Positions 12,937 through 56,938 of a stretch of 64,000 bases of DNA are shown in pieces (within the stretch, counting starts at the first letter, position 1; every line of letters begins with the position of its first letter). The notes under the pieces were generated by a model, which did not search any database, was not told where the DNA came from, and saw only the letters and a program-made list of their open reading frames with translations. Source of the DNA: Escherichia coli (GTDB taxonomy: Bacteria; Pseudomonadota; Gammaproteobacteria; Enterobacterales; Enterobacteriaceae); assembly GCF_003334815.1 (NCBI RefSeq), contig NZ_QOWO01000011.1. One strand, written 5' to 3'. The position numbers and the translations under genes are program-made.

Positions 12937-13208
12937 TCTTTATTCATTAAATCTGGGGCGCGATGCCGCCCCTGTTAGTGCGTAATACAGGAGTAAGCGC
13001 AGATGTTTCATGATTTACCGGGAGTTAAATAGAGCATTGGCTATTCTTTAAGGGTGGCTGAATACATGAGTATTCACAGCCTTACCTGAAGTGAGGACGA
13101 CGCAGAGAGGATGCACAGAGTGCTGCGCCGTTCAGGTCAAAAAAATGTCACAACCAGAAGTCAAAAATCCAATTGGATGGGGTGACACAATAAAACAGGA
13201 AGACAAGC

Positions 13209-15395
13209 ATGTCCGATCGTATCGATAGAGACGTGATTAACGCGCTAATTGCAGGCCATTTTGCGGATCCTTTTTCCGTACTGGGAATGCATAAAACCAC
13301 CGCGGGACTGGAAGTCCGTGCCCTTTTACCCGACGCTACCGATGTGTGGGTGATTGAACCGAAAACCGGGCGCAAACTCGCAAAACTGGAGTGTCTCGAC
13401 TCACGGGGATTCTTTAGCGGCGTCATTCCGCGACGTAAGAATTTTTTCCGCTATCAGTTGGCTGTTGTCTGGCATGGTCAGCAAAACCTGATTGATGATC
13501 CTTACCGTTTTGGTCCGCTAATCCAGGAAATGGATGCCTGGCTATTATCTGAAGGTACTCACCTGCGCCCGTATGAAACCTTAGGCGCGCATGCAGATAC
13601 TATGGATGGCGTCACAGGTACGCGTTTCTCTGTCTGGGCTCCAAACGCCCGTCGGGTCTCGGTGGTTGGGCAATTCAACTACTGGGACGGTCGCCGTCAC
13701 CCGATGCGCCTGCGTAAAGAGAGCGGCATCTGGGAACTGTTTATCCCTGGGGCGCATAACGGTCAGCTCTATAAATACGAGATGATTGATGCCAATGGCA
13801 ACTTGCGTCTGAAGTCCGACCCTTATGCCTTTGAAGCGCAAATGCGCCCGGAAACCGCGTCTCTTATTTGCGGGCTGCCGGAAAAGGTTGTACAGACTGA
13901 AGAGCGCAAAAAAGCGAATCAGTTTGATGCGCCAATCTCTATTTATGAAGTTCACCTGGGTTCCTGGCGTCGCCACACCGACAACAATTTCTGGTTGAGC
14001 TACCGCGAGCTGGCCGATCAACTGGTGCCTTATGCTAAATGGATGGGCTTTACCCACCTCGAACTACTGCCCATTAACGAGCATCCCTTCGATGGCAGTT
14101 GGGGTTATCAGCCAACCGGCCTGTATGCGCCAACCCGCCGTTTTGGTACTCGCGACGACTTCCGTTATTTCATTGATGCCGCACACGCAGCTGGTCTGAA
14201 CGTGATTCTCGACTGGGTGCCAGGCCACTTCCCGACTGATGACTTTGCGCTTGCCGAATTTGATGGCACGAACTTGTATGAACACAGCGATCCGCGTGAA
14301 GGCTATCATCAGGACTGGAACACGCTGATCTACAACTATGGTCGCCGTGAAGTCAGTAACTTCCTCGTCGGTAACGCGCTTTACTGGATTGAACGTTTTG
14401 GTATTGATGCGCTGCGCGTCGATGCGGTGGCGTCAATGATTTATCGCGACTACAGCCGTAAAGAGGGGGAGTGGATCCCGAACGAATTTGGCGGGCGCGA
14501 GAATCTTGAAGCGATTGAATTCTTGCGTAATACCAACCGTATTCTTGGTGAGCAGGTTTCCGGTGCGGTGACAATGGCTGAGGAGTCTACCGATTTCCCT
14601 GGCGTTTCTCGTCCGCAGGATATGGGCGGTCTGGGCTTCTGGTACAAGTGGAACCTCGGCTGGATGCATGACACCCTGGACTACATGAAGCTCGACCCGG
14701 TTTATCGTCAGTATCATCACGATAAACTGACCTTCGGGATTCTCTACAACTACACTGAAAACTTCGTCCTGCCGTTGTCGCATGATGAAGTGGTCCACGG
14801 TAAAAAATCGATTCTCGACCGCATGCCGGGCGACGCATGGCAGAAATTCGCGAACCTGCGCGCCTACTATGGCTGGATGTGGGCATTCCCGGGCAAGAAA
14901 CTACTGTTCATGGGTAACGAATTTGCCCAGGGCCGCGAGTGGAACCATGACGCCAGCCTCGACTGGCATCTGTTGGAAGGCGGCGATAACTGGCACCACG
15001 GTGTCCAGCGTCTGGTGCGCGATCTGAACCTCACCTACCGCCACCATAAAGCAATGCATGAACTGGATTTTGACCCGTACGGCTTTGAATGGCTGGTGGT
15101 GGATGACAAAGAACGCTCGGTGCTGATCTTTGTGCGTCGCGATAAAGAGGGTAACGAAATCATCGTTGCCAGTAACTTTACGCCGGTACCGCGTCATGAT
15201 TATCGCTTCGGCATAAACCAGCCGGGCAAATGGCGTGAAATCCTCAATACCGATTCCATGCACTATCACGGCAGTAATGCAGGCAATGGCGGCACGGTAC
15301 ACAGCGATGAGATTGCCAGCCACGGTCGTCAGCATTCACTAAGCCTGACGCTACCACCGCTGGCCACTATCTGGCTGGTTCGGGAGGCAGAATGA
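13209..15395 (+). CDS. glgB: 1,4-alpha-glucan branching enzyme
   Basis: 728 aa; GH13 catalytic core; first gene of the glycogen cluster. Confidence 0.95.
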
Positions 15396-17365
15396 CACAA
15401 CTCGCCATTGGCAAACCCGCTCCCCTCGGCGCGCATTACGACGGTCAGGGCGTCAACTTCACACTTTTCTCCGCTCATGCCGAGCGGGTAGAACTGTGTG
15501 TCTTTGACGCCAATGGCCAGGAACATCGCTATGACTTGCCAGGGCACAGTGGCGACATTTGGCACGGTTATCTGCCGGATGCGCGCCCGGGTTTGCGTTA
15601 TGGTTATCGCGTTCATGGCCCCTGGCAACCCGCCGAGGGGCATCGCTTTAACCCGGCGAAGTTGTTGATTGATCCTTGCGCGCGGCAAATTGACGGGGAG
15701 TTTAAAGATAACCCGCTGCTGCACGCCGGTCATAATGAACCTGACTATCGCGACAACGCCGCCATTGCGCCGAAATGCGTAGTGGTGGTTGATCACTATG
15801 ACTGGGAAGATGATGCCCCGCCGCGCACGCCGTGGGGCAGCACCATCATTTATGAAGCCCATGTCAAAGGATTAACGTACTTGCACCCGGAGATCCCGGT
15901 CGAGATCCGTGGCACTTATAAAGCCCTCGGGCATCCGGTGATGATCAACTATTTGAAACAATTGGGCATTACCGCGCTGGAACTGCTGCCAGTGGCGCAG
16001 TTTGCCAGTGAACCACGTCTGCAACGCATGGGGCTAAGTAACTACTGGGGTTACAACCCGGTGGCGATGTTTGCGCTGCATCCGGCGTATGCCTGCTCGC
16101 CAGAAACGGCGCTGGATGAGTTTCGCGATGCAATCAAAGCACTGCATAAAGCGGGTATCGAAGTCATTCTTGATATCGTGCTCAACCATAGTGCGGAACT
16201 GGACCTCGACGGCCCGTTATTCTCGCTGCGTGGGATCGATAACCGTAGCTATTATTGGATAAGAGAAGACGGCGATTATCACAACTGGACCGGTTGCGGC
16301 AACACGCTCAATTTGAGTCATCCGGCGGTGGTGGATTATGCCAGCGCCTGCCTGCGTTATTGGGTAGAAACCTGCCACGTCGATGGTTTCCGCTTTGATC
16401 TGGCGGCAGTCATGGGCCGTACGCCAGAGTTCCGTCAGGATGCGCCGTTGTTTACCGCTATCCAGAACTGCCCGGTGCTCTCGCAGGTGAAGTTAATTGC
16501 TGAACCGTGGGATATCGCTCCTGGTGGTTATCAGGTGGGAAATTTCCCGCCGCTGTTTGCCGAGTGGAACGATCATTTCCGCGATGCTGCCCGTCGTTTC
16601 TGGCTACATTATGATTTGCCTCTGGGGGCGTTTGCCGGGCGTTTTGCTGCCTCCAGCGATGTTTTTAAACGTAATGGTCGTCTGCCGAGTGCCGCGATTA
16701 ATCTCGTCACCGCGCATGACGGTTTTACGCTTCGCGACTGCGTTTGCTTCAACCATAAACACAATGAAGCAAACGGAGAAGAAAATCGCGACGGGACCAA
16801 CAACAATTACAGTAACAATCATGGTAAAGAAGGGTTAGGCGGTTCTCTTGACCTGGTTGAACGGCGGCGCGACAGCATTCACGCCCTGTTAACAACGTTG
16901 TTGCTCTCCCAGGGTACGCCGATGTTACTGGCCGGTGACGAACATGGTCACAGCCAGCATGGCAATAACAATGCCTACTGTCAGGATAACCAATTAACCT
17001 GGTTGGACTGGTCGCAGGCAAGCAGTGGTTTAACCGCATTTACCGCCGCGTTAATCCATCTGCGCAAGCGCATTCCCGCTTTGGTGGAGAATCGCTGGTG
17101 GGAAGAAGGCGACGGCAATGTCCGTTGGCTAAATCGATATGCTCAACCTTTAAGCACGGATGAGTGGCAAAACGGGCCGAAACAGCTGCAAATTCTGCTC
17201 TCGGATCGCTTTTTGATCGCAATTAACGCCACGCTTGAGGTAACAGAGATTGTTTTACCTGCTGGGGAGTGGCACGCCATTCCCCCATTCGCTGGAGAGG
17301 ATAACCCAGTGATTACGGCTGTCTGGCAGGGACCTGCACACGGATTGTGTGTGTTCCAGAGATGA
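15392..17365 (+). CDS. glgX: Glycogen debranching enzyme
   Basis: 657 aa; GH13; start overlaps the glgB stop (ATGA at 15392-15395). Confidence 0.95.
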
Positions 17366-17382
17366 TAAAAAAGGAGTTAGTC

Positions 17383-18678
17383 ATGGTTAGTTTAGAGAAG
17401 AACGATCACTTAATGTTGGCGCGCCAGCTGCCATTGAAATCTGTTGCCCTGATACTGGCGGGAGGACGTGGTACCCGCCTGAAGGATTTAACCAATAAGC
17501 GAGCAAAACCGGCCGTACACTTCGGCGGTAAGTTCCGCATTATCGACTTTGCGCTGTCTAACTGCATCAACTCCGGGATCCGTCGTATGGGCGTGATCAC
17601 CCAGTACCAGTCCCACACTCTGGTGCAGCACATTCAGCGCGGCTGGTCATTCTTCAATGAAGAAATGAACGAGTTTGTCGATCTGCTGCCAGCACAGCAG
17701 AGAATGAAAGGGGAAAACTGGTATCGCGGCACCGCAGATGCGGTCACCCAAAACCTCGACATTATCCGCCGTTATAAAGCGGAATACGTGGTGATCCTGG
17801 CGGGCGACCATATCTACAAGCAAGACTACTCGCGTATGCTTATCGATCACGTCGAAAAAGGCGCACGTTGCACCGTTGCTTGTATGCCAGTACCGATTGA
17901 AGAAGCCTCCGCATTTGGCGTTATGGCGGTTGATGAGAACGATAAAATTATCGAATTCGTTGAAAAACCTGCTAACCCGCCGTCAATGCCGAACGATCCG
18001 AGCAAATCTCTGGCGAGTATGGGTATCTACGTCTTTGACGCCGACTATCTGTATGAACTGCTGGAAGAAGACGATCGCGATGAGAACTCCAGCCACGACT
18101 TTGGCAAAGATTTGATTCCCAAGATCACCGAAGCCGGTCTGGCCTATGCGCACCCGTTCCCGCTCTCTTGCGTACAATCCGACCCGGATGCCGAGCCGTA
18201 CTGGCGCGATGTGGGTACGCTGGAAGCTTACTGGAAAGCGAACCTCGATCTGGCCTCTGTGGTGCCGGAACTGGATATGTACGATCGCAATTGGCCAATT
18301 CGCACCTACAATGAATCATTACCGCCAGCGAAATTCGTGCAGGATCGCTCCGGTAGCCACGGGATGACCCTTAACTCACTGGTTTCCGGCGGTTGTGTGA
18401 TCTCCGGTTCGGTGGTGGTGCAGTCCGTTCTGTTCTCGCGCGTTCGCGTGAATTCATTCTGCAACATTGATTCCGCCGTATTGTTACCGGAAGTATGGGT
18501 AGGTCGCTCGTGCCGTCTGCGCCGCTGCGTCATCGATCGTGCTTGTGTTATTCCGGAAGGCATGGTGATTGGTGAAAACGCAGAGGAAGATGCACGTCGT
18601 TTCTATCGTTCAGAAGAAGGCATCGTGCTGGTAACGCGCGAAATGCTACGGAAGTTAGGGCATAAACAGGAGCGATAA
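17383..18678 (+). CDS. glgC: Glucose-1-phosphate adenylyltransferase
   Basis: ORF-track frame 17347..18678; start at ATG 17383 after AAGGAG SD ([16 protein letters not shown]...); motif LAGGRGTRL; 431 aa. Confidence 0.95.
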
Positions 18679-20111
18679 TGCAGGTTTTACATGTATGTTC
18701 AGAGATGTTCCCGCTGCTTAAAACCGGCGGTCTGGCTGATGTTATTGGGGCATTACCCGCAGCACAAATCGCAGACGGCGTTGACGCTCGCGTACTGTTG
18801 CCTGCATTTCCCGATATTCGCCGTGGCGTGACCGATGCGCAGGTAGTATCCCGTCGTGATACCTTCGCCGGACATATCACGCTGTTGTTCGGTCATTACA
18901 ACGGGGTTGGCATTTACCTGATTGACGCGCCGCATCTCTATGATCGTCCGGGAAGCCCGTATCACGATACCAACTTATTTGCCTATACCGACAACGTATT
19001 GCGTTTTGCGCTGCTGGGGTGGGTTGGGGCAGAAATGGCCAGCGGGCTTGACCCATTCTGGCGTCCTGATGTGGTGCATGCGCACGACTGGCATGCAGGC
19101 CTTGCGCCTGCGTATCTGGCGGCGCGCGGGCGTCCGGCGAAGTCGGTGTTTACTGTGCACAACCTGGCCTATCAAGGCATGTTTTATGCACATCACATGA
19201 ATGACATCCAATTGCCATGGTCATTCTTTAATATTCATGGGCTGGAATTCAACGGACAAATCTCTTTCCTGAAGGCCGGTCTGTACTATGCCGATCACAT
19301 TACGGCGGTCAGTCCAACCTACGCTCGCGAGATCACCGAACCGCAGTTTGCCTACGGTATGGAAGGTCTGTTGCAACAGCGTCACCGTGAAGGGCGTCTT
19401 TCCGGCGTACTGAACGGCGTGGACGAGAAAATCTGGAGTCCAGAGACGGACTTACTGTTGGCCTCGCGTTACACCCGCGATACGTTGGAAGATAAAGCGG
19501 AAAATAAGCGCCAGTTACAAATCGCAATGGGGCTTAAGGTTGACGATAAAGTGCCGCTTTTTGCAGTGGTGAGCCGTCTGACCAGCCAGAAAGGTCTCGA
19601 CCTGGTGCTGGAAGCCTTACCGGGTCTTCTGGAGCAGGGCGGGCAGCTGGCGCTACTCGGCGCGGGCGATCCGGTGCTGCAGGAAGGTTTCCTTGCGGCG
19701 GCAGCGGAATACCCCGGTCAGGTGGGCGTTCAGATTGGCTATCACGAAGCATTTTCGCATCGCATTATGGGCGGCGCGGACGTCATTCTGGTGCCCAGCC
19801 GTTTTGAACCGTGCGGCTTAACGCAACTTTATGGATTGAAGTACGGTACGCTGCCGTTAGTGCGGCGCACCGGTGGGCTTGCTGATACGGTTTCTGACTG
19901 TTCTCTTGAGAACCTTGCAGATGGCGTCGCCAGTGGGTTTGTCTTTGAAGATAGTAATGCCTGGTCGCTGTTACGGGCTATTCGACGTGCTTTTGTACTG
20001 TGGTCCCGTCCTTCACTGTGGCGGTTTGTGCAACGTCAGGCTATGGCAATGGATTTTAGCTGGCAGGTCGCGGCGAAGTCGTACCGTGAGCTTTACTATC
20101 GCTTGAAATAG
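18678..20111 (+). CDS. glgA: Glycogen synthase
   Basis: 477 aa; ADP-glucose binding KTGGL motif near the N-terminus; start overlaps the glgC stop (TAATG). Confidence 0.95.
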
Positions 20112-22577
<2,466 letters not shown>

Positions 22578-22594
22578 GTTCACCAATAAATAGA

Positions 22595-22620
22595 ACGGGG
22601 CCAAAGGGTCCCGTTTTTTT
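22595..22620 (+). terminator. Rho-independent terminator after glgP
   Basis: AACGGGGCC-aaa-GGGTCCCGTT followed by T7. Confidence 0.7.
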
Positions 22621-22693
22621 CCGCCATCATTTCGGAAAAGTGTCCAGAAGGGGCAAGGGGACTCGGGGAGTATAATTTCACCATTCAAAAAGA

Positions 22694-22999
22694 ATGGAAA
22701 GAATAATGCAAAACAGAAAATGGATTTTGACCTCGCTGGTAATGACTTTTTTCGGCATCCCCATACTGGCGCAATTTTTGGCGGTGGTTATTGCCATGCT
22801 GGGTGTCGGACTTGCCGGTATTATTGAAGTTTGTAATATCCTTATCACGCCAACAATTTACCTTCTGCTCAAAATTTTTATGCTGGCGCTGGGCGCATTA
22901 ATGCTATTTTTCTCGGGGCGAGTGGGGAACGTGCCTGAGTTTTGTTACGTTGGGTATGATGGCGTGGGCTTTGCGGTAATTCCCCGAATTAAAAAGTAG
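22694..22999 (+). CDS. Hypothetical small hydrophobic protein (about 101 aa)
   Basis: ORF between glgP and glpD with two predicted membrane helices; weak SD; real coding status uncertain. Confidence 0.3.
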   Translation: MERIMQNRKWILTSLVMTFFGIPILAQFLAVVIAMLGVGLAGIIEVCNILITPTIYLLLKIFMLALGALMLFFSGRVGNVPEFCYVGYDGVGFAVIPRIKK

Positions 23000-26105: not shown

Positions 26106-26864
26106 ATGAAACAAACACAACGTCACAACGGTATTATCGAACTGGTTAAACAGCAGGGTTATGTCAGTACCGAAGAGCTGGTAGAGCATTTCTCCGTCAG
26201 CCCGCAGACTATTCGCCGCGACCTCAATGAGCTGGCGGAGCAAAACCTGATCCTGCGCCATCATGGCGGTGCGGCGCTGCCTTCCAGTTCGGTTAACACG
26301 CCGTGGCACGATCGCAAGGCCACCCAGACCGAAGAAAAAGAGCGCATCGCCCGCAAAGTGGCGGAGCAAATCCCCAATGGCTCGACGCTGTTTATCGATA
26401 TCGGCACCACGCCGGAAGCGGTAGCGCACGCACTGCTCAATCACAGCAATTTGCGCATTGTCACCAACAATCTCAACGTTGCTAACACGTTGATGGTAAA
26501 AGAAGATTTTCGCATCATTCTCGCCGGTGGCGAATTACGCAGCCGCGATGGCGGGATCATTGGCGAAGCGACGCTCGATTTTATCTCCCAGTTCCGCCTT
26601 GATTTCGGCATTCTGGGGATAAGCGGCATCGATAGCGACGGCTCGCTGCTGGAGTTCGATTACCACGAAGTTCGCACCAAACGCGCCATTATTGAGAACT
26701 CGCGCCACGTTATGCTGGTTGTCGATCACTCGAAATTTGGCCGTAACGCGATGGTCAATATGGGCAGCATCAGCATGGTAGATGCCGTCTACACCGACGC
26801 CCCGCCGCCAGTAAGCGTGATGCAGGTGCTGACGGACCACCATATTCAACTGGAGCTGTGCTGA
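26106..26864 (+). CDS. glpR: Glycerol-3-phosphate regulon repressor (DeoR family)
   Basis: 252 aa; N-terminal HTH, DeoR-type sugar-phosphate domain. Confidence 0.93.
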   Translation: MKQTQRHNGIIELVKQQGYVSTEELVEHFSVSPQTIRRDLNELAEQNLILRHHGGAALPSSSVNTPWHDRKATQTEEKERIARKVAEQIPNGSTLFIDIGTTPEAVAHALLNHSNLRIVTNNLNVANTLMVKEDFRIILAGGELRSRDGGIIGEATLDFISQFRLDFGILGISGIDSDGSLLEFDYHEVRTKRAIIENSRHVMLVVDHSKFGRNAMVNMGSISMVDAVYTDAPPPVSVMQVLTDHHIQLELC

Positions 26865-28632: not shown

Positions 28633-29859
28633 ATGAATTACGAATTACTGACCACTGAAAATGCCCCGGTAAAAATGTGGACCAAAGGCGTGCCGGTAGA
28701 GGCCGATGCGCGTCAGCAACTTATTAATACGGCGAAGATGCCGTTTATTTTCAAACATATTGCGGTAATGCCTGATGTACACCTGGGTAAAGGTTCCACC
28801 ATTGGTAGCGTGATCCCGACCAAAGGGGCGATTATTCCGGCGGCGGTGGGCGTGGATATTGGCTGTGGAATGAACGCGCTGCGTACCGCGTTAACGGCGG
28901 AAGACCTGCCTGAAAACCTGGCAGAGCTGCGTCAGGCGATTGAAACGGCCGTGCCGCACGGGCGTACCACTGGCCGTTGTAAACGTGATAAAGGTGCCTG
29001 GGAAAATCCACCTGTTAACGTCGATGCTAAATGGGCTGAGCTTGAAGCCGGTTATCAGTGGTTAACGCAAAAATATCCCCGTTTCCTGAATACCAATAAC
29101 TATAAACACCTGGGAACGCTGGGAACCGGTAACCACTTTATTGAAATCTGCCTTGATGAGTCGGACCAGGTGTGGATTATGCTGCACTCCGGTTCACGCG
29201 GAATTGGTAACGCCATCGGGACTTACTTTATCGATCTGGCACAAAAAGAGATGCAGGAAACGCTTGAGACGTTGCCGTCGCGTGATCTGGCGTACTTTAT
29301 GGAAGGTACGGAATACTTTGATGATTACCTGAAAGCCGTGGCCTGGGCGCAGCTTTTTGCCAGCCTTAACCGCGATGCGATGATGGAAAACGTGGTAACG
29401 GCATTGCAGAGCATTACGCAGAAAACGGTCAGACAGCCACAAACGCTGGCGATGGAAGAGATCAACTGTCACCACAACTATGTGCAAAAAGAACAGCACT
29501 TTGGTGAAGAGATCTACGTGACGCGTAAAGGCGCGGTGTCTGCGCGTGCTGGTCAATATGGAATTATTCCCGGTTCGATGGGAGCAAAAAGCTTTATCGT
29601 CCGTGGGCTGGGAAATGAAGAGTCGTTCTGTTCGTGCAGCCACGGTGCCGGGCGGGTAATGAGCCGAACTAAAGCGAAAAAACTGTTCAGCGTGGAAGAT
29701 CAAATTCGTGCCACCGCGCATGTGGAATGCCGTAAAGATGCCGAAGTGATCGACGAAATCCCGATGGCGTATAAAGATATTGATGCGGTGATGGCGGCAC
29801 AAAGCGATCTGGTGGAAGTTATCTATACCCTGCGTCAGGTGGTGTGCGTAAAAGGATAA
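28633..29859 (+). CDS. rtcB: RNA-splicing ligase RtcB (3'-phosphate/5'-OH RNA ligase)
   Basis: 408 aa; RtcB family sequence. Confidence 0.94.
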   Translation: MNYELLTTENAPVKMWTKGVPVEADARQQLINTAKMPFIFKHIAVMPDVHLGKGSTIGSVIPTKGAIIPAAVGVDIGCGMNALRTALTAEDLPENLAELRQAIETAVPHGRTTGRCKRDKGAWENPPVNVDAKWAELEAGYQWLTQKYPRFLNTNNYKHLGTLGTGNHFIEICLDESDQVWIMLHSGSRGIGNAIGTYFIDLAQKEMQETLETLPSRDLAYFMEGTEYFDDYLKAVAWAQLFASLNRDAMMENVVTALQSITQKTVRQPQTLAMEEINCHHNYVQKEQHFGEEIYVTRKGAVSARAGQYGIIPGSMGAKSFIVRGLGNEESFCSCSHGAGRVMSRTKAKKLFSVEDQIRATAHVECRKDAEVIDEIPMAYKDIDAVMAAQSDLVEVIYTLRQVVCVKG

Positions 29860-30879
<1,020 letters not shown>

Positions 30880-43747: not shown

Positions 43748-43984
43748 TTAACGCAGCGCCCACCACTCGCGCAGACAGGCTTTTCCTTCCGGGCAGCTTT
43801 TACAACTGCCAGAGAGGCAGCCGTCAGGTTCTTCCTGAATCCGCACGGCTTTGCCCATACTTTCCAGTTGTTGCAGCATGGCGTTAATCATTGGCTGTGG
43901 AGTGTTCAATGTCTGGCTTATCTGGGCCGCTTCCATACGGCCCCGTAACGCCAGCAAATCGCGCACCTGAATAAGTGAAGCCAT
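43748..43984 (-). CDS. feoC: Ferrous iron transport protein C
   Basis: ORF-track frame 43748..43993; start at ATG 43982-43984 ([11 protein letters not shown]...); C-terminal Cys cluster; 78 aa. Confidence 0.88.
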
Positions 43985-46305
43985 TAATGGCAATCACCGG
44001 TGGTGCTGGCTGCGCAGCAACTGCTTACCGACTTGCGGGTTGCCAGCAGTTCGATATCCACCCGGCTACGCGCGCGGCGCAGCAGACCGATAACCACGAT
44101 GTTAAACAGGATAACCGCCAGAATGCACACCAGGCTGTAAGTTGGATGCTGACTGTAGCTGGCGACCTGATAGAACAATGTTGCCAGTGAGTAAGCGATA
44201 TTCAGCCCCCACAGGATGGAGAAGCCCATCCAGCCACGGCTTGATTCACGGGCGATAGCCCCCATCACCGAGATACATGGTACATACAGCAGGACGAAAA
44301 TCAGGTAGCTGTAAGCTGCTGCTGCGCTACCGAATTTCTGATCCATCACGCCCATCGCCCCGGTACCCATTTCGCCGTCGCCTTTGCTGGCTTCAATGGG
44401 GTTCATCAGTACGCTAAGGCTGAAGGTGTCTTTCAGGCTCTGCCAGGTTTCATCTATCGCACTGAACAGCTCTTCACCGAGGTTAAATTCTGCCGGATTG
44501 AACTCTTCGTCCTGAATATTTTCTGCGGTGTAGAGGGTGTTGAGCGTACCCACTACCACTTCTTTCGCCATGGCACCTGTAAACAGGCCAACCGTTGCCT
44601 GCCAGTTATCTTCATGCACGCCAATTGGCTTGAAGACCGGGGTGATCACCCGGCTGACGGACGCCAGCGCCGAGTCGTTGATGTTATCGACGATTTTCCC
44701 GCTCAGCGAGAAGCTGTTGAAAGCGCTCAGGAAAATGCTGACGATGATGATCACTTTACCAGCACGCAGAACGAAGCCTTTCAGACGCTGCCAGGTCTGG
44801 ATAATCAGGCTTTTAACGTGTGGTACATGATAGACCGGCAACTCCATGACAAACGGCGTCGCTTCACCGCGCATGATGGTGTACTTGAGCATCAGGCCAG
44901 TCAGCACCGCCATCACAATACCCAGCATATACAGCGAGAAGACCGCCAGCGCACCGTTCTGCCCGAAGAAGGCAGCCGCGAATACTGCGAAGATAGCCAG
45001 ACGCGCGCCGCAGGACATAAACGGTGCCATCATGATGGTCATCAGACGTTCACGCGGTGCATCAAGCGTACGTGCACCCATTACCGACGGTACGTTACAA
45101 CCGAAACCGACGATCAGCGGCACAAAGGATTTCCCCGGCAAGCCCAGCGCCTGCATCAGACGGTCCATCACAAACGCCGCACGCGCCATATACCCGGAGT
45201 CCTCAAGGAAGGAGAGGAACAGGTACATCATGCCAATCTGCGGCACCAGTGGCAGCACGGTGTTAATGCCGCCACCCAGGCCCTGGGCGAGGAAGATAGT
45301 CAGCCAGTCCGGGAAGTGGAGCGTGTAGCCAATCCATTGAATACCATGCACAAATAGCGCCACGGAGCCGACGTCAAACAGCGGCTGTAACGCCCCGCCG
45401 ATGTTGATAGCCAGCAGGAACATCAGGTACATCACAAAGAGGAAAATCGGCAGACCGAGGAAACGGTTGAGCACGATTTTATCTACCGCAGTGGTGAAAC
45501 GGCTGGGTTCTGCCGTCAGGGTGTTGCTTACCACATCACAGATGGCAGCAATGCACTGGTAACGCGCATCGGCAATGTGCAGCGCCGGATCGTCCATCTC
45601 ATTACGCAGACGGGCGAGGGCGGCATCCAGATGCTGCGACGCTTCACCGGCGTAGGCGCGGCTGTAGATATCGCCTTCCAGCATTTGCAGGCCCAGCCAG
45701 CGACGTTGTTTCAGCGGGATGTCGGAAGGCATCACTTTTGCCAGTGAATCTGCTTCGTTGAGCAGCGGCTGTGCGTAATGCACCAGTTCCACATTCTCGT
45801 TAGCTTTATAGCGATCAATCGCCAGCTTGAGCGCTTCAATACCGCGACCACGGGTTGAAACCAGCGGGATCACCGGACAGCCCAGACGCGCCGACAGAGC
45901 ATCAATTTCAATACGAATATTTTGCTTCTCGGCAATGTCGAGCATGTTCAGTGCCACAATGCAGGGAATGCCGAGTTCCAGCAGTTGTAGCGTCAGGTAC
46001 AGGTTACGCTCAAGGTTAGACGCATCCACCACGTTAATCAGCAGGTCGGCGTCGCCACTCAAAATGTAGTGACAGGCGATTTGCTCATCGAGCGAGGTCT
46101 GCGATGAGATGGTGGTCAGAGAATAGGTGCCGGGCAGGTCCACCAGCGTGACCTGATGATCGGTGGTGGAGAATTGCCCTTCTTTACGTTCGACGGTAAC
46201 GCCAGCCCAGTTACCTACACGCTGACGTGAGCCAGTGAGCTGGTTAAATAACGTTGTCTTGCCAGAATTTGGATTACCAATTAAGCCAATGGTTAATTTT
46301 TTCAT
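43984..46305 (-). CDS. feoB: Ferrous iron transporter B (GTPase plus membrane domain)
   Basis: ORF-track frame 43984..46317; start at ATG 46303-46305 ([21 protein letters not shown]); G1 motif GNPNSGKT; 773 aa. Confidence 0.95.
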
Positions 46306-50127: not shown

Positions 50128-52196
<2,069 letters not shown>

Positions 52197-54272: not shown

Positions 54273-55997
54273 ATGGATAACGTTGAACTTTCACCCGCAA
54301 CACGCTGGGGGATGATTGCTACCGGATTACTTCAGGGTCTGGTTTGCTACCTGCTGATCGCCTGGCTTTCCGGAAAAAATCACAGTTGGATTGTTTATGG
54401 CGTGCCTGCGACCGTCGCGTTTTCATCCGTTTTACTCTTCTCCGTGATCTCTTTTAAACAGAAGCGCCTTTGGGGATGGCTGGCGCTAGTGTTTATTGCC
54501 ACGCTGGGGATGAGCGGCTGGCTGAAGTGGCAAACTGATGGCATGAACCCCTGGAGAGCTGAAAAGGCGCTTTGGGATTTTGGTTGCTATCTGCTGTTGA
54601 TGGCAATGTTGTTGCTACCGTGGATACAACAAAGCCTTCGCATCCGCAATGACAGTAGCCGCTATCGCTATTTTTACCAGTCAGTATGGCATAACGTACT
54701 TATATTACTGGTGATTTTTCTCGCCAATGGCTTGACGTGGCTGGTGCTTTTACTGTGGAGTGAGTTGTTTAAACTTGTTGGCATCACGTTTTTCAATACG
54801 CTCTTTTTTGCAACCGACTGGTTTATTTATCTCACGTTAGGTCTGGTTACCGCGCTGGCGGTGATCCTCGCGCGAACACAGTCACGTTTAATCGACTCTA
54901 TTCAAAAGTTGTTCACGTTAATCGCCACGGGGTTGCTGCCGTTAGTATCATTGCTAACCCTGATGTTTATCATCACCCTGCCGTTTACGGGCCTGAGCGC
55001 GATTTCTCGCCACATCTCCGCCGCCGGGTTGCTGTTGACGCTGGCCTTTTTGCAATTGATCTTAATGGCTATTGTCCGCGATCCGCAAAAAGCGTCACTT
55101 CCCTGGACAGGGCCGTTGCGTTGCCTGATTAAAACCGCTTTGCTGGTTGCTCCGCTGTATGTGTTCGTCGCCGCCTGGGCGTTATGGCTGCGGGTCGCTC
55201 AGTACGGCTGGACTGTCGACCGCTTGCAGGGCGTGCTGGCGGTGCTGGTGTTACTGGTGTGGTCGCTGGGGTATTTTGTCAGCATCGTCTGGCGTAAAGG
55301 GCAAAATCCCGTTGTTCTTCAGGGCAAAGTGAACCTTGCGGTTTCGTTATTGGTGTTGGTGATACTGGTGCTTCTTAATTCGCCGGTGCTGGACAGTATG
55401 CGCATTAGCGTGAACAGCCATATGGCGCGTTATCAGAGCGGCAAAAACACGTCAGACCAGGTAACTATCTACATGCTCGAGCAGAGCGGTCGCTATGGAC
55501 GTGCTGCGCTTGAGTCGCTGAAAAGCGATGCCGGGTTTATGAAAGACCCGAAACGCGCGCGGGATCTGCTGATGGCGTTAGATGGAGAGCAACATCTTCA
55601 GCAACAGGTATCGGAAAAAGTATTAGCCGATAATGTGTTAATTGCCCCTGGTTCTGTTAAACCTGATGCGACATTCTGGTCGGCCTTAATCCAGGATCGC
55701 TATAACGTGATGACCTGTATTGAAAAAGACGCCTGCGTCCTGGTCGAGCAAGATCTGAATAGTGATGGTCAGGCGGAGCGGATCCTGTTTGCTTTTAATG
55801 ATGACAGAGTCATTGTCTATGGCTTTGACTCAGACAGAAAAGAATGGGACGCGCTTGATATGAGTTTACTTCCGAACGAAATAACGAAAGAAAAATTACT
55901 CACAGCTGCGAAGGATGGAAAACTGGGGACGAAGCCTAAAGCGTGGCGCGATCTTGTAGTGGATGGTGAAAGGCTGAATGTGAATCTGAATGAGTGA
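54273..55997 (+). CDS. yhgE: Polytopic inner-membrane protein of unknown function
   Basis: 574 aa; about 10 hydrophobic helices then a soluble C-terminal domain; synteny. Confidence 0.85.
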
Positions 55998-56026
55998 CAA
56001 AGCGCATCAGGTGTATTAGTCGTAAA

Positions 56027-56050
56027 ATCCGGCAGAGCCCTCTCTGCCGG
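56027..56050. terminator. Bidirectional hairpin between the convergent yhgE and hslO ends
   Basis: TCCGGCAGAG-ccct-CTCTGCCGGA perfect 10-bp stem. Confidence 0.5.
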
Positions 56051-56059
56051 ACATACTCA

Positions 56060-56938
56060 TTAATGAACTTGCGGATCTGCCGGAGACGCGTTGTTGCGGA
56101 TTTCAGCAATATCCATCGCATTGAACAGATAGTGGTTACCGCAGTAATCACAATGCATGTCAATTTCGCCATCTTCCGCCAGGATGCTATCAACTTCTTC
56201 ATCAGGCAGCGTTTTCAGCGCATCGGCGCAACGTTCACGCGAGCAGGTGCATTTGAACTCCACATCCTGCGGATCGTAAACCGTCACCTCTTCTTCGTGA
56301 TACAAACGCCACAACACTTCGTTTGCCGGTAAGGTCAGCAGTTCTTCGGTTTTGATGGTTTCGGTTAGCGTCGCCAGGTGGTCAAAGTCGTCCTGCTGGG
56401 CATTTTGCGCAGGCATTACCTGCAACAACATACCGCCTGCAGCCGGTTTGCCGTCTACGTCGCCGGTGCGAATAAACAGGCGCGTCGGCAGCTGTTCAGA
56501 ACGCATAAAGTAATCTTCCAGGCAGGCCGCCAGGGTATCACCTTCCAGACCAACTACGCCCTGATAGCGTTCGCCTTCGCTCGGGGTAATGGTGATCACC
56601 ACGTAACCATTGCCGACCAGCGTTTTCAGGTCGGCATTTTCTGGAATTTCGCCCTGCACGCGCGCCACACCGCGCATCTGCTGGTTATTGTTACCGTTAA
56701 TAACCGCCAGATTCATCGGACCGTCGCCCTGCAGCTGTACGGTGATATCACCATCAAACTTCAGCGTAGCGGTTAACAGGCTGGTCGCAACCAGCAGTTC
56801 TGCCAGCACGTTTTTAACGGGCTGCGGATAATCGTGGTTCTCAAGGATCTGTTGCAGGGTTTCCGAAACGGTTACCAGTTCGCCGCGCACGGCAAAGTTT
56901 TCAAACAGATAGCGATGTAATTGGTCATGTTGCGGCAT
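56060..56938 (-). CDS. hslO: Redox-regulated chaperone Hsp33
   Basis: ORF-track frame 56060..56944; start at ATG 56936-56938 ([12 protein letters not shown]...); C-terminal zinc centre CTC ... C ... CDYC. Confidence 0.94.

Follow-up and report, generated by a model that had tools for sequence, protein, structure and literature searches.

Stop/start overlaps at five Escherichia coli gene junctions permit translational coupling without implying equal protein amounts

Five overlapping gene pairs between ggt and mrcA

The window (the whole stretch of DNA analyzed, 64,000 nt) is a segment of an Escherichia coli K-12-type chromosome that extends from ggt to mrcA. Among its 29 co-directional neighbor pairs only yhhZ/yrhA, glgB/glgX, glgC/glgA, feoB/feoC and ompR/envZ overlap, the same five that a first-pass annotation had listed. 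Inspection of the sequence placed every overlap where it had been claimed, with a spacing of -4 in three pairs and -1 in two, and all ten ORFs translate cleanly. The RefSeq annotation of an identical K-12 sequence has identical overlap coordinates, and all five downstream starts match. The features discussed below are as follows.

3667..3673, minus strand: ATGATGA, in which the yrhA start (ATG 3673-3671) overlaps the yhhZ stop (TGA 3672-3670)
3670-3668, minus strand: second yrhA ATG, one codon in
3669-3667, minus strand: second in-frame TGA, directly after the yhhZ stop
15382..15387, plus strand: GGGAGG, Shine-Dalgarno (SD) site of glgX, within the end of glgB and 4 nt 5′ of the ATG
15392..15395, plus strand: ATGA common to the glgB stop (TGA 15393-15395) and the glgX start (ATG 15392-15394)
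17362..17365, plus strand: decoy ATGA, in which the glgX stop (TGA 17363-17365) overlaps an ATG in the glgC frame
17371..17385, plus strand: AAGGAG SD (17371-17376) and accepted glgC start (ATG 17383-17385)
18668..18672, plus strand: AGGAG, SD site of glgA, which in E. coli is formed by the last GlgC codons (..Q-E-R-stop)
18676..18680, plus strand: TAATG common to the glgC stop (TAA 18676-18678) and the glgA start (ATG 18678-18680)
43982..43986, minus strand: TAATG of the feoB stop (43986-43984) and the feoC start (43984-43982), with 43984 as the common base
50844..50847, plus strand: ATGA common to the ompR stop (TGA 50845-50847) and the envZ start (ATG 50844-50846)

No other spacings are nearly as common at prokaryotic gene junctions as -4 and -1 (PMC12548453), and termination-reinitiation coupling is most effective at these distances (PMC12548453, PMC10666635). 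All five pairs lie within the range expected of coupled pairs (co-directional, -8 to about +10 nt), as do 820 E. coli pairs spaced -8 to +10 nt (PMC10666635). Overlaps occur in about 15% of ORF pairs in E. coli (PMC5318159), compared with 5 of 29 in the window. Fourteen pairs in the window are spaced within +/-25 nt, and five of these are at exactly -4 or -1 (P = 1.4e-4 under a null of uniform spacing). The overlap motif by itself is not rare: 14 of 48 stop codons in the window have an ATG, GTG or TTG overlapping at -4 or -1. Eight of these overlapping starts lead into ORFs of 78 codons or more, and three of those starts are not real.

The glgBXCAP genes are reported as a single unit with an extra promoter within glgC, according to PMC4301808; the title of Montero 2011, cited via the same paper, states that a promoter inside glgC drives glgAP. 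Our consensus scan of positions 13000-22800 returned no plus-strand promoter, the reported glgC-internal one included, and terminator-like sites were no more frequent than in shuffled sequences. An Rfam scan found no structured RNA at the junctions, the sole match in the window being RyhB, located elsewhere.

Predicted ribosome recruitment at the downstream starts

Start strength was computed as anti-SD duplex energy for 47 starts in the window, and ribosome binding site (RBS) accessibility for the 47 starts is a thermodynamic prediction on 240-nt fragments, not a measured value. The SD of glgX (-10.3 kcal/mol) is the strongest among the 47, and GGGAGG or a near variant occurs at most related loci. 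The glgA SD has a duplex energy of -6.6 kcal/mol, and the predicted accessibilities of both sites lie within 0.52-0.55. The envZ start has no good SD; its score of -5.7 kcal/mol is reached only via a bulged, badly spaced GGACGG 9 nt upstream, and its predicted accessibility of 0.33 is within the lowest four of 47. No SD precedes feoC (-3.0 kcal/mol; predicted accessibility 0.33), nor yrhA (-3.0 kcal/mol), but the start region of the latter is predicted to be open (0.63). Self-recruitment of ribosomes appears weak for feoC and envZ, partly weak for yrhA and not weak for glgX and glgA. With a weak SD yet an open RBS, yrhA departs from a two-class pattern.

Probable coupling as dependence of the downstream gene

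We consider it very probable that these are five ordinary cases of the commonest bacterial junction, at which the overlap sets dependence and not a 1:1 ratio. A ribosome ending the upstream gene would already be at the next start and able to reinitiate, and downstream translation would depend partly or wholly on upstream translation. Coupling of glgX and glgA, which combine a strong SD with average predicted accessibility, would probably be partial because their own SD lets ribosomes also load independently, and the level of the downstream protein would not follow that of the upstream one. Three starts would likely be fed mainly by terminating ribosomes: those of envZ and feoC, without a usable SD and in predicted structure, and that of yrhA, without an SD in a predicted open region. 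The level of the upstream protein would then be a ceiling for the downstream one, and EnvZ would be held far beneath that ceiling.

Evidence for such dependence comes from the Salmonella typhimurium ompB operon, where envZ translation falls at least 10-fold if ompR translation ends off its normal stop (Liljestrom 1988, as summarized in PMC3843671). The first-pass annotation had proposed an upstream stop-codon experiment as a check, and this earlier work amounts to one. The Salmonella operon has the same genes and the same 4-nt ATGA overlap and no material difference; the E. coli junction is its orthologue, the experiment having been done in Salmonella. The ATGA is retained in all three lineages sampled (ompR DNA 86-99% identical to the window), including four of four loci in the second lineage. 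Some Salmonella genomes are said to have ompR and envZ “separated” (PMC3843671). The annotation's reading of the overlaps as signs of translational coupling thus holds to the extent that the spacing permits coupling at all five junctions and that ompR/envZ is coupled in the Salmonella experiment as summarized; at the other four junctions we infer it.

Overlap does not always bring coupling. Among five E. coli ATGA pairs tested, coupling was shown in three (PMC6728339). In hyfHI, astDB and ydbH/ynbE (Huber et al. 2019), which resemble the pairs here in having a native E. coli 4-nt overlap with the SD inside the upstream gene, an early upstream stop abolished downstream translation (PMC6728339). 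The tested pairs were picked mostly among complex subunits, and the five pairs of the window are absent from it. The bioBF ATGA pair showed zero coupling and menDH only about 60%, and bioF starts de novo despite a weak SD (PMC6728339). Weakness of the SD is therefore no guarantee of coupling, because bioBF combines a weak SD and ATGA with independent translation. By analogy, bioBF and menDH, which share an ATGA-type overlap within a metabolic operon with the glg pairs, are likely models for glgX and glgA, both with their own strong SD. Compared with bioF, the SD sites of glgX and glgA are much stronger, and glgA is also reported to have the glgC-internal promoter. Our literature search found no coupling experiments on glgB/glgX, glgC/glgA, feoB/feoC or yhhZ/yrhA, and glgB/X/C/A, feoB/C and yhhZ are not among the genes in the Burkhardt 2017 supplements.

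Conservation of the overlaps among related genomes

Alternatively, the overlaps could be neutral by-products of small deletions or stop shifts in short spacers, harmless and with the downstream genes translated independently. We regard this as possible, on balance unlikely, and it fares differently at different junctions. The spacing of glgC/glgA in 74 loci is -1 in 18, +11 in 3 and 28-151 nt in 53. The string CAGGAGCGATA-ATG is also found 5′ of glgA in several genera (Phytobacter, Kosakonia) whose spacer measures 82-92 nt, and close GGAG variants occupy this place in other genera with a spacer. The glgA SD thus appears older than the overlap, because CAGGAGCGATA-ATG precedes glgA in genera with the spacer. 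The E. coli arrangement looks as though a spacer of 80-90 nt had been deleted, joining the glgC frame to a pre-existing glgA SD, and Pluralibacter, with an 11-nt spacer, represents an intermediate between the spaced and overlapping states.

At feoB/feoC, Salmonella, Kluyvera and Lelliottia have spacers of 12, 8 and 9 nt, each with an SD, and E. coli lacks this SD-bearing spacer. The loss cuts against full independence: having lost its SD, E. coli feoC needs another means of ribosome recruitment.

The yhhZ/yrhA relatives have spacers of 16 or 59 nt, and the ATGA overlap was seen in E. coli only. YhhZ has an Hcp domain at residues 1-147 (TIGR03344, 118 bits; also PF05638) and a weak HNH match at residues 322-343 (E = 0.013), and it has been classed as a His-Me finger nuclease (PMC5714182). 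Its C-terminal 211 residues are 69% identical to Leclercia and Dryocola proteins with a DUF8093 N-terminus, each of which is followed by a YrhA homolog. The YrhA family model, the only one to match, covers YrhA residues 4-163, a Pfam search of YrhA gave zero matches, and some database records label its homologs SMI1/KNR4 family (a label only). From gene content, the pair fits the layout of polymorphic toxin-immunity systems, with a delivery domain, a variable putative toxin domain at the C-terminus and a small cognate gene that travels with it. The likeness to such cassettes lies in an Hcp domain joined to a putative nuclease and followed by a candidate immunity gene; unlike Hcp toxin-immunity cassettes, YhhZ/YrhA is known here from its genes, with a YrhA that has no Pfam match. 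K-12 is not known to possess a type VI secretion system that could deliver YhhZ.

Comparison of these loci suggests that the glgC/glgA, feoB/feoC and yhhZ/yrhA overlaps are limited to E. coli or its closest relatives and arose as short spacers were lost. That the nearest other genera sampled lack three of these five overlaps fits little functional weight, and the bioBF result (PMC6728339) demonstrates that overlap without coupling exists. The remaining two junctions argue against a neutral origin. In 74 Enterobacterales loci glgB/glgX is spaced at -4 in 41 and -1 in 17 (58 of 74 together), with the remainder between -23 and +19 nt, and it is the sole junction to remain tight at every one of the 74 loci scored. 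The ompR/envZ ATGA is conserved, as described above, and coupled in the Salmonella experiment as summarized.

Protein amounts

The first-pass annotation also held that the overlaps point to stoichiometric co-expression. Selection for fixed, matched amounts of both proteins of each pair is, in our view, improbable. A toxin and its immunity protein need matched supply, and FeoB and FeoC are reported to interact. The classical cases of translational coupling are reportedly trpE-trpD and trpB-trpA of the E. coli trp operon, described by Oppenheim and Yanofsky in 1980. These pairs likewise have a stop-start overlap in a biosynthetic operon, and downstream translation depends on upstream translation. 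The trp pairs, however, encode subunits of heteromeric enzymes in equal amounts, whereas OmpR:EnvZ is ~35:1, and we take GlgB/GlgX and GlgC/GlgA to be separate enzymes and not heteromeric complexes, unlike the trp pairs.

The OmpR and EnvZ numbers (about 3500 and about 100 molecules per cell; PMC543474) contradict matched amounts for this pair, and the envZ translation efficiency of 0.126 is among the lowest in a ribosome-profiling table for Salmonella. Roughly 70% of closely spaced E. coli pairs do not code for a complex (PMC10666635). In E. coli ribosome profiling, relative translation is equally variable in 73 overlapping and 253 non-overlapping pairs (PMC5318159). Moreover, glgA has its own SD and a promoter reported to lie inside glgC, and sister genera that carry the same genes lack three of the five overlaps. 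Given the OmpR and EnvZ counts and overlapping pairs that are no more uniform genome-wide, the stoichiometric part of the annotation is not supported.

A decoy overlap and the assignment of start codons

The glgX stop forms a further ATGA whose in-frame ATG lies 7 codons (21 nt) upstream of the accepted glgC start and occurs at no more than 14 of the 73 related loci. The accepted start, 17383 in RefSeq, has an SD with a duplex energy of -8.2 kcal/mol, and nearly all related loci have a GGAG-type SD a few nucleotides 5′ of an ATGGT-type glgC start. In the PDB, every GlgC chain from E. coli has 431 residues, the first being the methionine at 17383.

It is very improbable that the decoy is a second, coupled glgC start in Escherichia, Enterobacter, Lelliottia and some Citrobacter. 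In such a case, ribosomes on the long glgBXCAP transcript would terminate at the glgX stop, reinitiate at the decoy ATGA and read the CsrA-bound SD region as codons, yielding GlgC with seven additional N-terminal residues (MIKKELV). The glgC leader is a target of CsrA action (PMC3971182), and a second start, if real, would provide a CsrA-insensitive trickle of ADP-glucose pyrophosphorylase. Against a minor isoform stand the small share of loci with the in-frame ATG and the constraint that the SD and the CsrA site already place on the seven extra codons. An overlap is no certificate of a start, because the decoy is in frame and yet is not the glgC start. The overlaps had been said to help confirm the downstream starts; the starts are correct, in agreement with RefSeq, family models and residue-1 alignments, and the support that the overlaps lend them is weak.

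That one or more downstream genes start at another codon and do not overlap at all is hardly credible: the decoy, the second yrhA ATG, an in-frame TTG 3 codons upstream of feoC and several in-frame TTG and GTG codons within the first 40 codons of envZ leave some room for it, but glgX has no in-frame alternative start from 28 codons upstream to 40 downstream, in-frame stops lie 5, 2 and 4 codons upstream of glgA, envZ and feoC, alignments of GlgX, GlgA and GlgC begin at residue 1 in almost all of the 80 loci (including those with glgA behind a spacer; wherever both genes are listed, GlgA does so at an ATG), the NCBIfam FeoC model spans all 78 residues (1-78), the EnvZ N-termini of three lineages align from Met1, and the second yrhA ATG would also overlap the yhhZ stop, as TGATG. 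Mis-called starts were accordingly rejected on upstream in-frame stops, cross-locus alignment, family models and PDB chains.

Implications

The five overlaps are ordinary, already known features of well-studied E. coli operons, and their significance beyond good annotation practice is small. Their use is as a caution. A junction of the ATGA or TAATG type makes coupling possible and does not imply equal protein amounts. The glgX/glgC decoy illustrates that overlap alone does not prove a start codon. Loss of short spacers appears to have produced three of the five overlaps, which should not be taken as conserved design.

Stop/start overlaps in the window

Five downstream genes have start codons that overlap the preceding stop codon, as seen in the sequence:

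glgB/glgX: 15392-15395 (+), ATGA
glgC/glgA: 18676-18680 (+), TAATG
ompR/envZ: 50844-50847 (+), ATGA
feoB/feoC: 43984 (-), the base common to both genes within TAATG
yhhZ/yrhA: 3673-3670 (-), ATGA, then another ATG and another in-frame TGA

Translation gave clean reading frames at all five junctions. The first-pass annotation had located each overlap exactly and its list is complete, as 5 of the 29 co-directional neighbor pairs in the window overlap and they are these five. Spacings of exactly -4 (ATGA, four nucleotides common to stop and start) or -1 (TAATG, one nucleotide) account for 5 of the 14 pairs lying within ±25 nt (P = 1.4e-4 against a null of uniform spacing). This is a genuine enrichment, of the kind well known from whole genomes. 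Across bacteria and archaea no other spacings approach -4 and -1 in frequency (PMC12548453; PMC10666635), overlaps account for about 15% of ORF pairs in E. coli (PMC5318159), and 820 E. coli pairs have spacings of -8 to +10 nt (PMC10666635). Overlaps of this sort have long been known and are ordinary in well-studied operons.

Gene order in the window runs from ggt to mrcA and agrees, coordinate for coordinate from yrhA onwards, with the RefSeq annotation of an MG1655 assembly; the glg region is 100% identical to that of K-12 and of several further E. coli strains. The sole structural difference seen from MG1655 is the IS1A copy that splits yrhA. The 777 bp involved (IS1A plus target duplication) are absent from the window (about 3179-3260 (-), versus 2531-3228 in the MG1655 locus, L001), which leaves a 164-codon yrhA uninterrupted, a state shared with many other E. 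coli. Between yhhY and yhhX, Rfam places the RyhB small RNA gene (5724-5788, +; RF00057, 83.1 bits, full length); no other Rfam family matched in the window. The 3′ ends of the convergent glpR (+) and rtcR (-) genes overlap by 19 bp (26846-26864). In some E. coli-type comparison loci (L084, L091; 4601-5273) the envZ-pckA interval holds two inserted genes, one RelE-like and one HTH, that the window does not have.

Ribosome-binding sites divide the junctions into two kinds

By anatomy, glgX and glgA are distinct from envZ, feoC and yrhA. The glgX start is preceded at 4 nt by GGGAGG (15382-15387; -10.3 kcal/mol, unsurpassed among the 47 starts examined) and glgA at 5 nt by AGGAG (18668-18672; -6.6 kcal/mol). 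Neither feoC nor yrhA has a usable Shine-Dalgarno (-3.0 kcal/mol each), and the match at envZ is bulged and badly spaced, with nothing better available. Accessibility, as thermodynamic prediction rather than measurement, is average for glgX (0.55) and glgA (0.52), among the four lowest of the starts in the window for envZ and feoC (0.33), and high at the open start region of yrhA (0.63).

Conservation of the junctions

A single scan with GlgC recovered 80 loci across Enterobacterales, and spacings were scored in 74. The glgB/glgX junction is tight in all 74 (-4 in 41, -1 in 17 and the remainder -23 to +19). Only 18 of the 74 have glgC/glgA at -1 (Escherichia, Citrobacter, Enterobacter, Lelliottia, Klebsiella, Trabulsiella and Pseudocitrobacter), three Pluralibacter-type loci have +11, and 53 have a spacer of 28-151 nt, including Kosakonia, Pantoea, Serratia, Yersinia, Pectobacterium and Dickeya. 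The bases directly 5′ of the glgA start (CAGGAGCGATA) are identical in several of the spacer-bearing genera and have close GGAG variants in the others, and the glgA ribosome-binding site thus predates the overlap. A spacer deletion in E. coli appears to have fused the glgC frame onto the older glgA ribosome-binding site, so that CAG-GAG-CGA-TAA is now read as the GlgC C-terminus (Q-E-R-stop). The 80-100 nt spacers of several genera (loci L021-L024, L029 and L037-L039) contain a GC-rich inverted repeat, e.g., ggcgcgctttttcgcgcc, a candidate terminator, RNA-processing site or REP-like element.

Three lineages, with ompR DNA 86-99% identical to that of the window, retain the ATGA at ompR/envZ. 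The feoB/feoC spacing is -1 in E. coli versus +12 in Salmonella, +8 in Kluyvera and +9 in Lelliottia (loci named by the NCBI names of their FeoC proteins); each of these spacers holds a Shine-Dalgarno that was lost in E. coli. The yhhZ/yrhA genes, at -4 in E. coli, are separated by 59 nt in Citrobacter youngae and by 16 nt in both Leclercia and Dryocola.

A putative toxin-immunity pair

The label of toxin and immunity genes is a reasonable one for yhhZ/yrhA, although putative. In YhhZ, an Hcp domain is accompanied by a weak HNH match, and PMC5714182 classes the protein as a His-Me finger nuclease; YrhA had no match in Pfam. Leclercia and Dryocola carry the C-terminal 211 residues of YhhZ (69% identity) attached to another N-terminal domain, and a YrhA homologue comes next in each case, an arrangement that reads as the signature of a polymorphic toxin-immunity cassette. 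In Leclercia (locus L101, 3083-3971), the homologue of this C-terminal domain and its yrhA-like gene adjoin genes with Imm70 and Imm63 immunity-protein domains, which suggests an island of toxin-immunity genes.

Start codons and a decoy overlap

The five downstream starts, which the overlaps had been thought to help confirm, are right, and RefSeq has the same ones. No alternative in-frame start for glgX occurs from 28 codons upstream to 40 downstream, and in-frame stops lie 5, 2 and 4 codons upstream of glgA, envZ and feoC, respectively. In nearly all 80 Enterobacterales loci the alignments of GlgX, GlgC and GlgA begin with residue 1, at an ATG, and model matches cover residues 1-78 of 78 for FeoC and 4-163 for YrhA. 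The overlap itself is not the proof. A potential start overlaps the stop at -4 or -1 for 14 of the 48 stops in the window; eight of the 14 open ORFs of ≥78 codons, and three of those eight are not real starts.

The glg operon has a third overlap motif that had gone unlisted, in which the glgX stop lies within ATGA (17362-17365, +) and the ATG is in frame with glgC. The accepted glgC start at 17383 is 21 nt (7 codons) 3′ of this decoy and is preceded by AAGGAG. Every PDB chain of E. coli GlgC has 431 residues and begins at 17383; nearly all related loci have a GGAG-type Shine-Dalgarno a few nt 5′ of the equivalent start, and only 14 of 73 loci have the upstream in-frame ATG. The decoy is apparently not used. 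Initiation there in coupling with glgX, yielding small amounts of a GlgC with an N-terminal extension and free of CsrA control, is very improbable.

Elsewhere, the rtcB stop TAA is followed immediately by ATGATG (29857-29865, +). RefSeq places the rtcA start at 29863; the longest ORF begins at 29860, with zero spacing from the stop, and by sequence alone the choice is ambiguous. GTGA at the yhgE stop and TTGA at the rtcR stop begin two ORFs absent from the annotation, one of 112 codons (55994-56332, +) antisense to hslO and one of 104 codons (beyond the rtcR stop, -) antisense to glpR; both are probably spurious.

Coupling and stoichiometry

The first-pass annotation read the overlaps as signs of translational coupling and stoichiometric co-expression, an interpretation that is partly supported overall. 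The -4/-1 spacing allows termination-reinitiation coupling. The stop-codon experiment that the first-pass annotation proposed had already been done on ompR/envZ in Salmonella, where, as PMC3843671 describes Liljestrom 1988, envZ translation fell at least 10-fold once ompR translation ended off its normal stop. Five native E. coli ATGA pairs have been tested for coupling, which was strict in three, about 60% in menDH and absent in bioBF (PMC6728339), so an overlap makes coupling likely but is insufficient as proof. Our literature search found no coupling tests for glgB/glgX, glgC/glgA, feoB/feoC or yhhZ/yrhA.

Stoichiometric co-expression is unsupported. GlgB and GlgX are separate enzymes that are not known to form a complex, and the same holds for GlgC and GlgA. 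OmpR is given as about 3500 molecules per cell and EnvZ as about 100 (PMC543474, citing Cai and Inouye), and the envZ translation efficiency of 0.126 is among the lowest in a Salmonella ribosome-profiling table (PMC10710512 supplement). Relative translation efficiency in E. coli is as variable for 73 overlapping pairs as for 253 non-overlapping ones (PMC5318159). Complex subunits are enriched at short spacing, yet some 70% of E. coli pairs with tight spacing encode no complex (PMC10666635).

In the mechanism we propose, envZ and feoC, and probably yrhA, would be fed mainly by terminating ribosomes, and glgX and glgA could also load ribosomes independently. A promoter inside glgC that additionally serves glgA is reported in the title of Montero 2011; on transcripts from it, full-length glgC would be wholly untranslated. 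Reinitiation coupling imposes a ceiling and a dependence on the downstream gene, not a 1:1 ratio.
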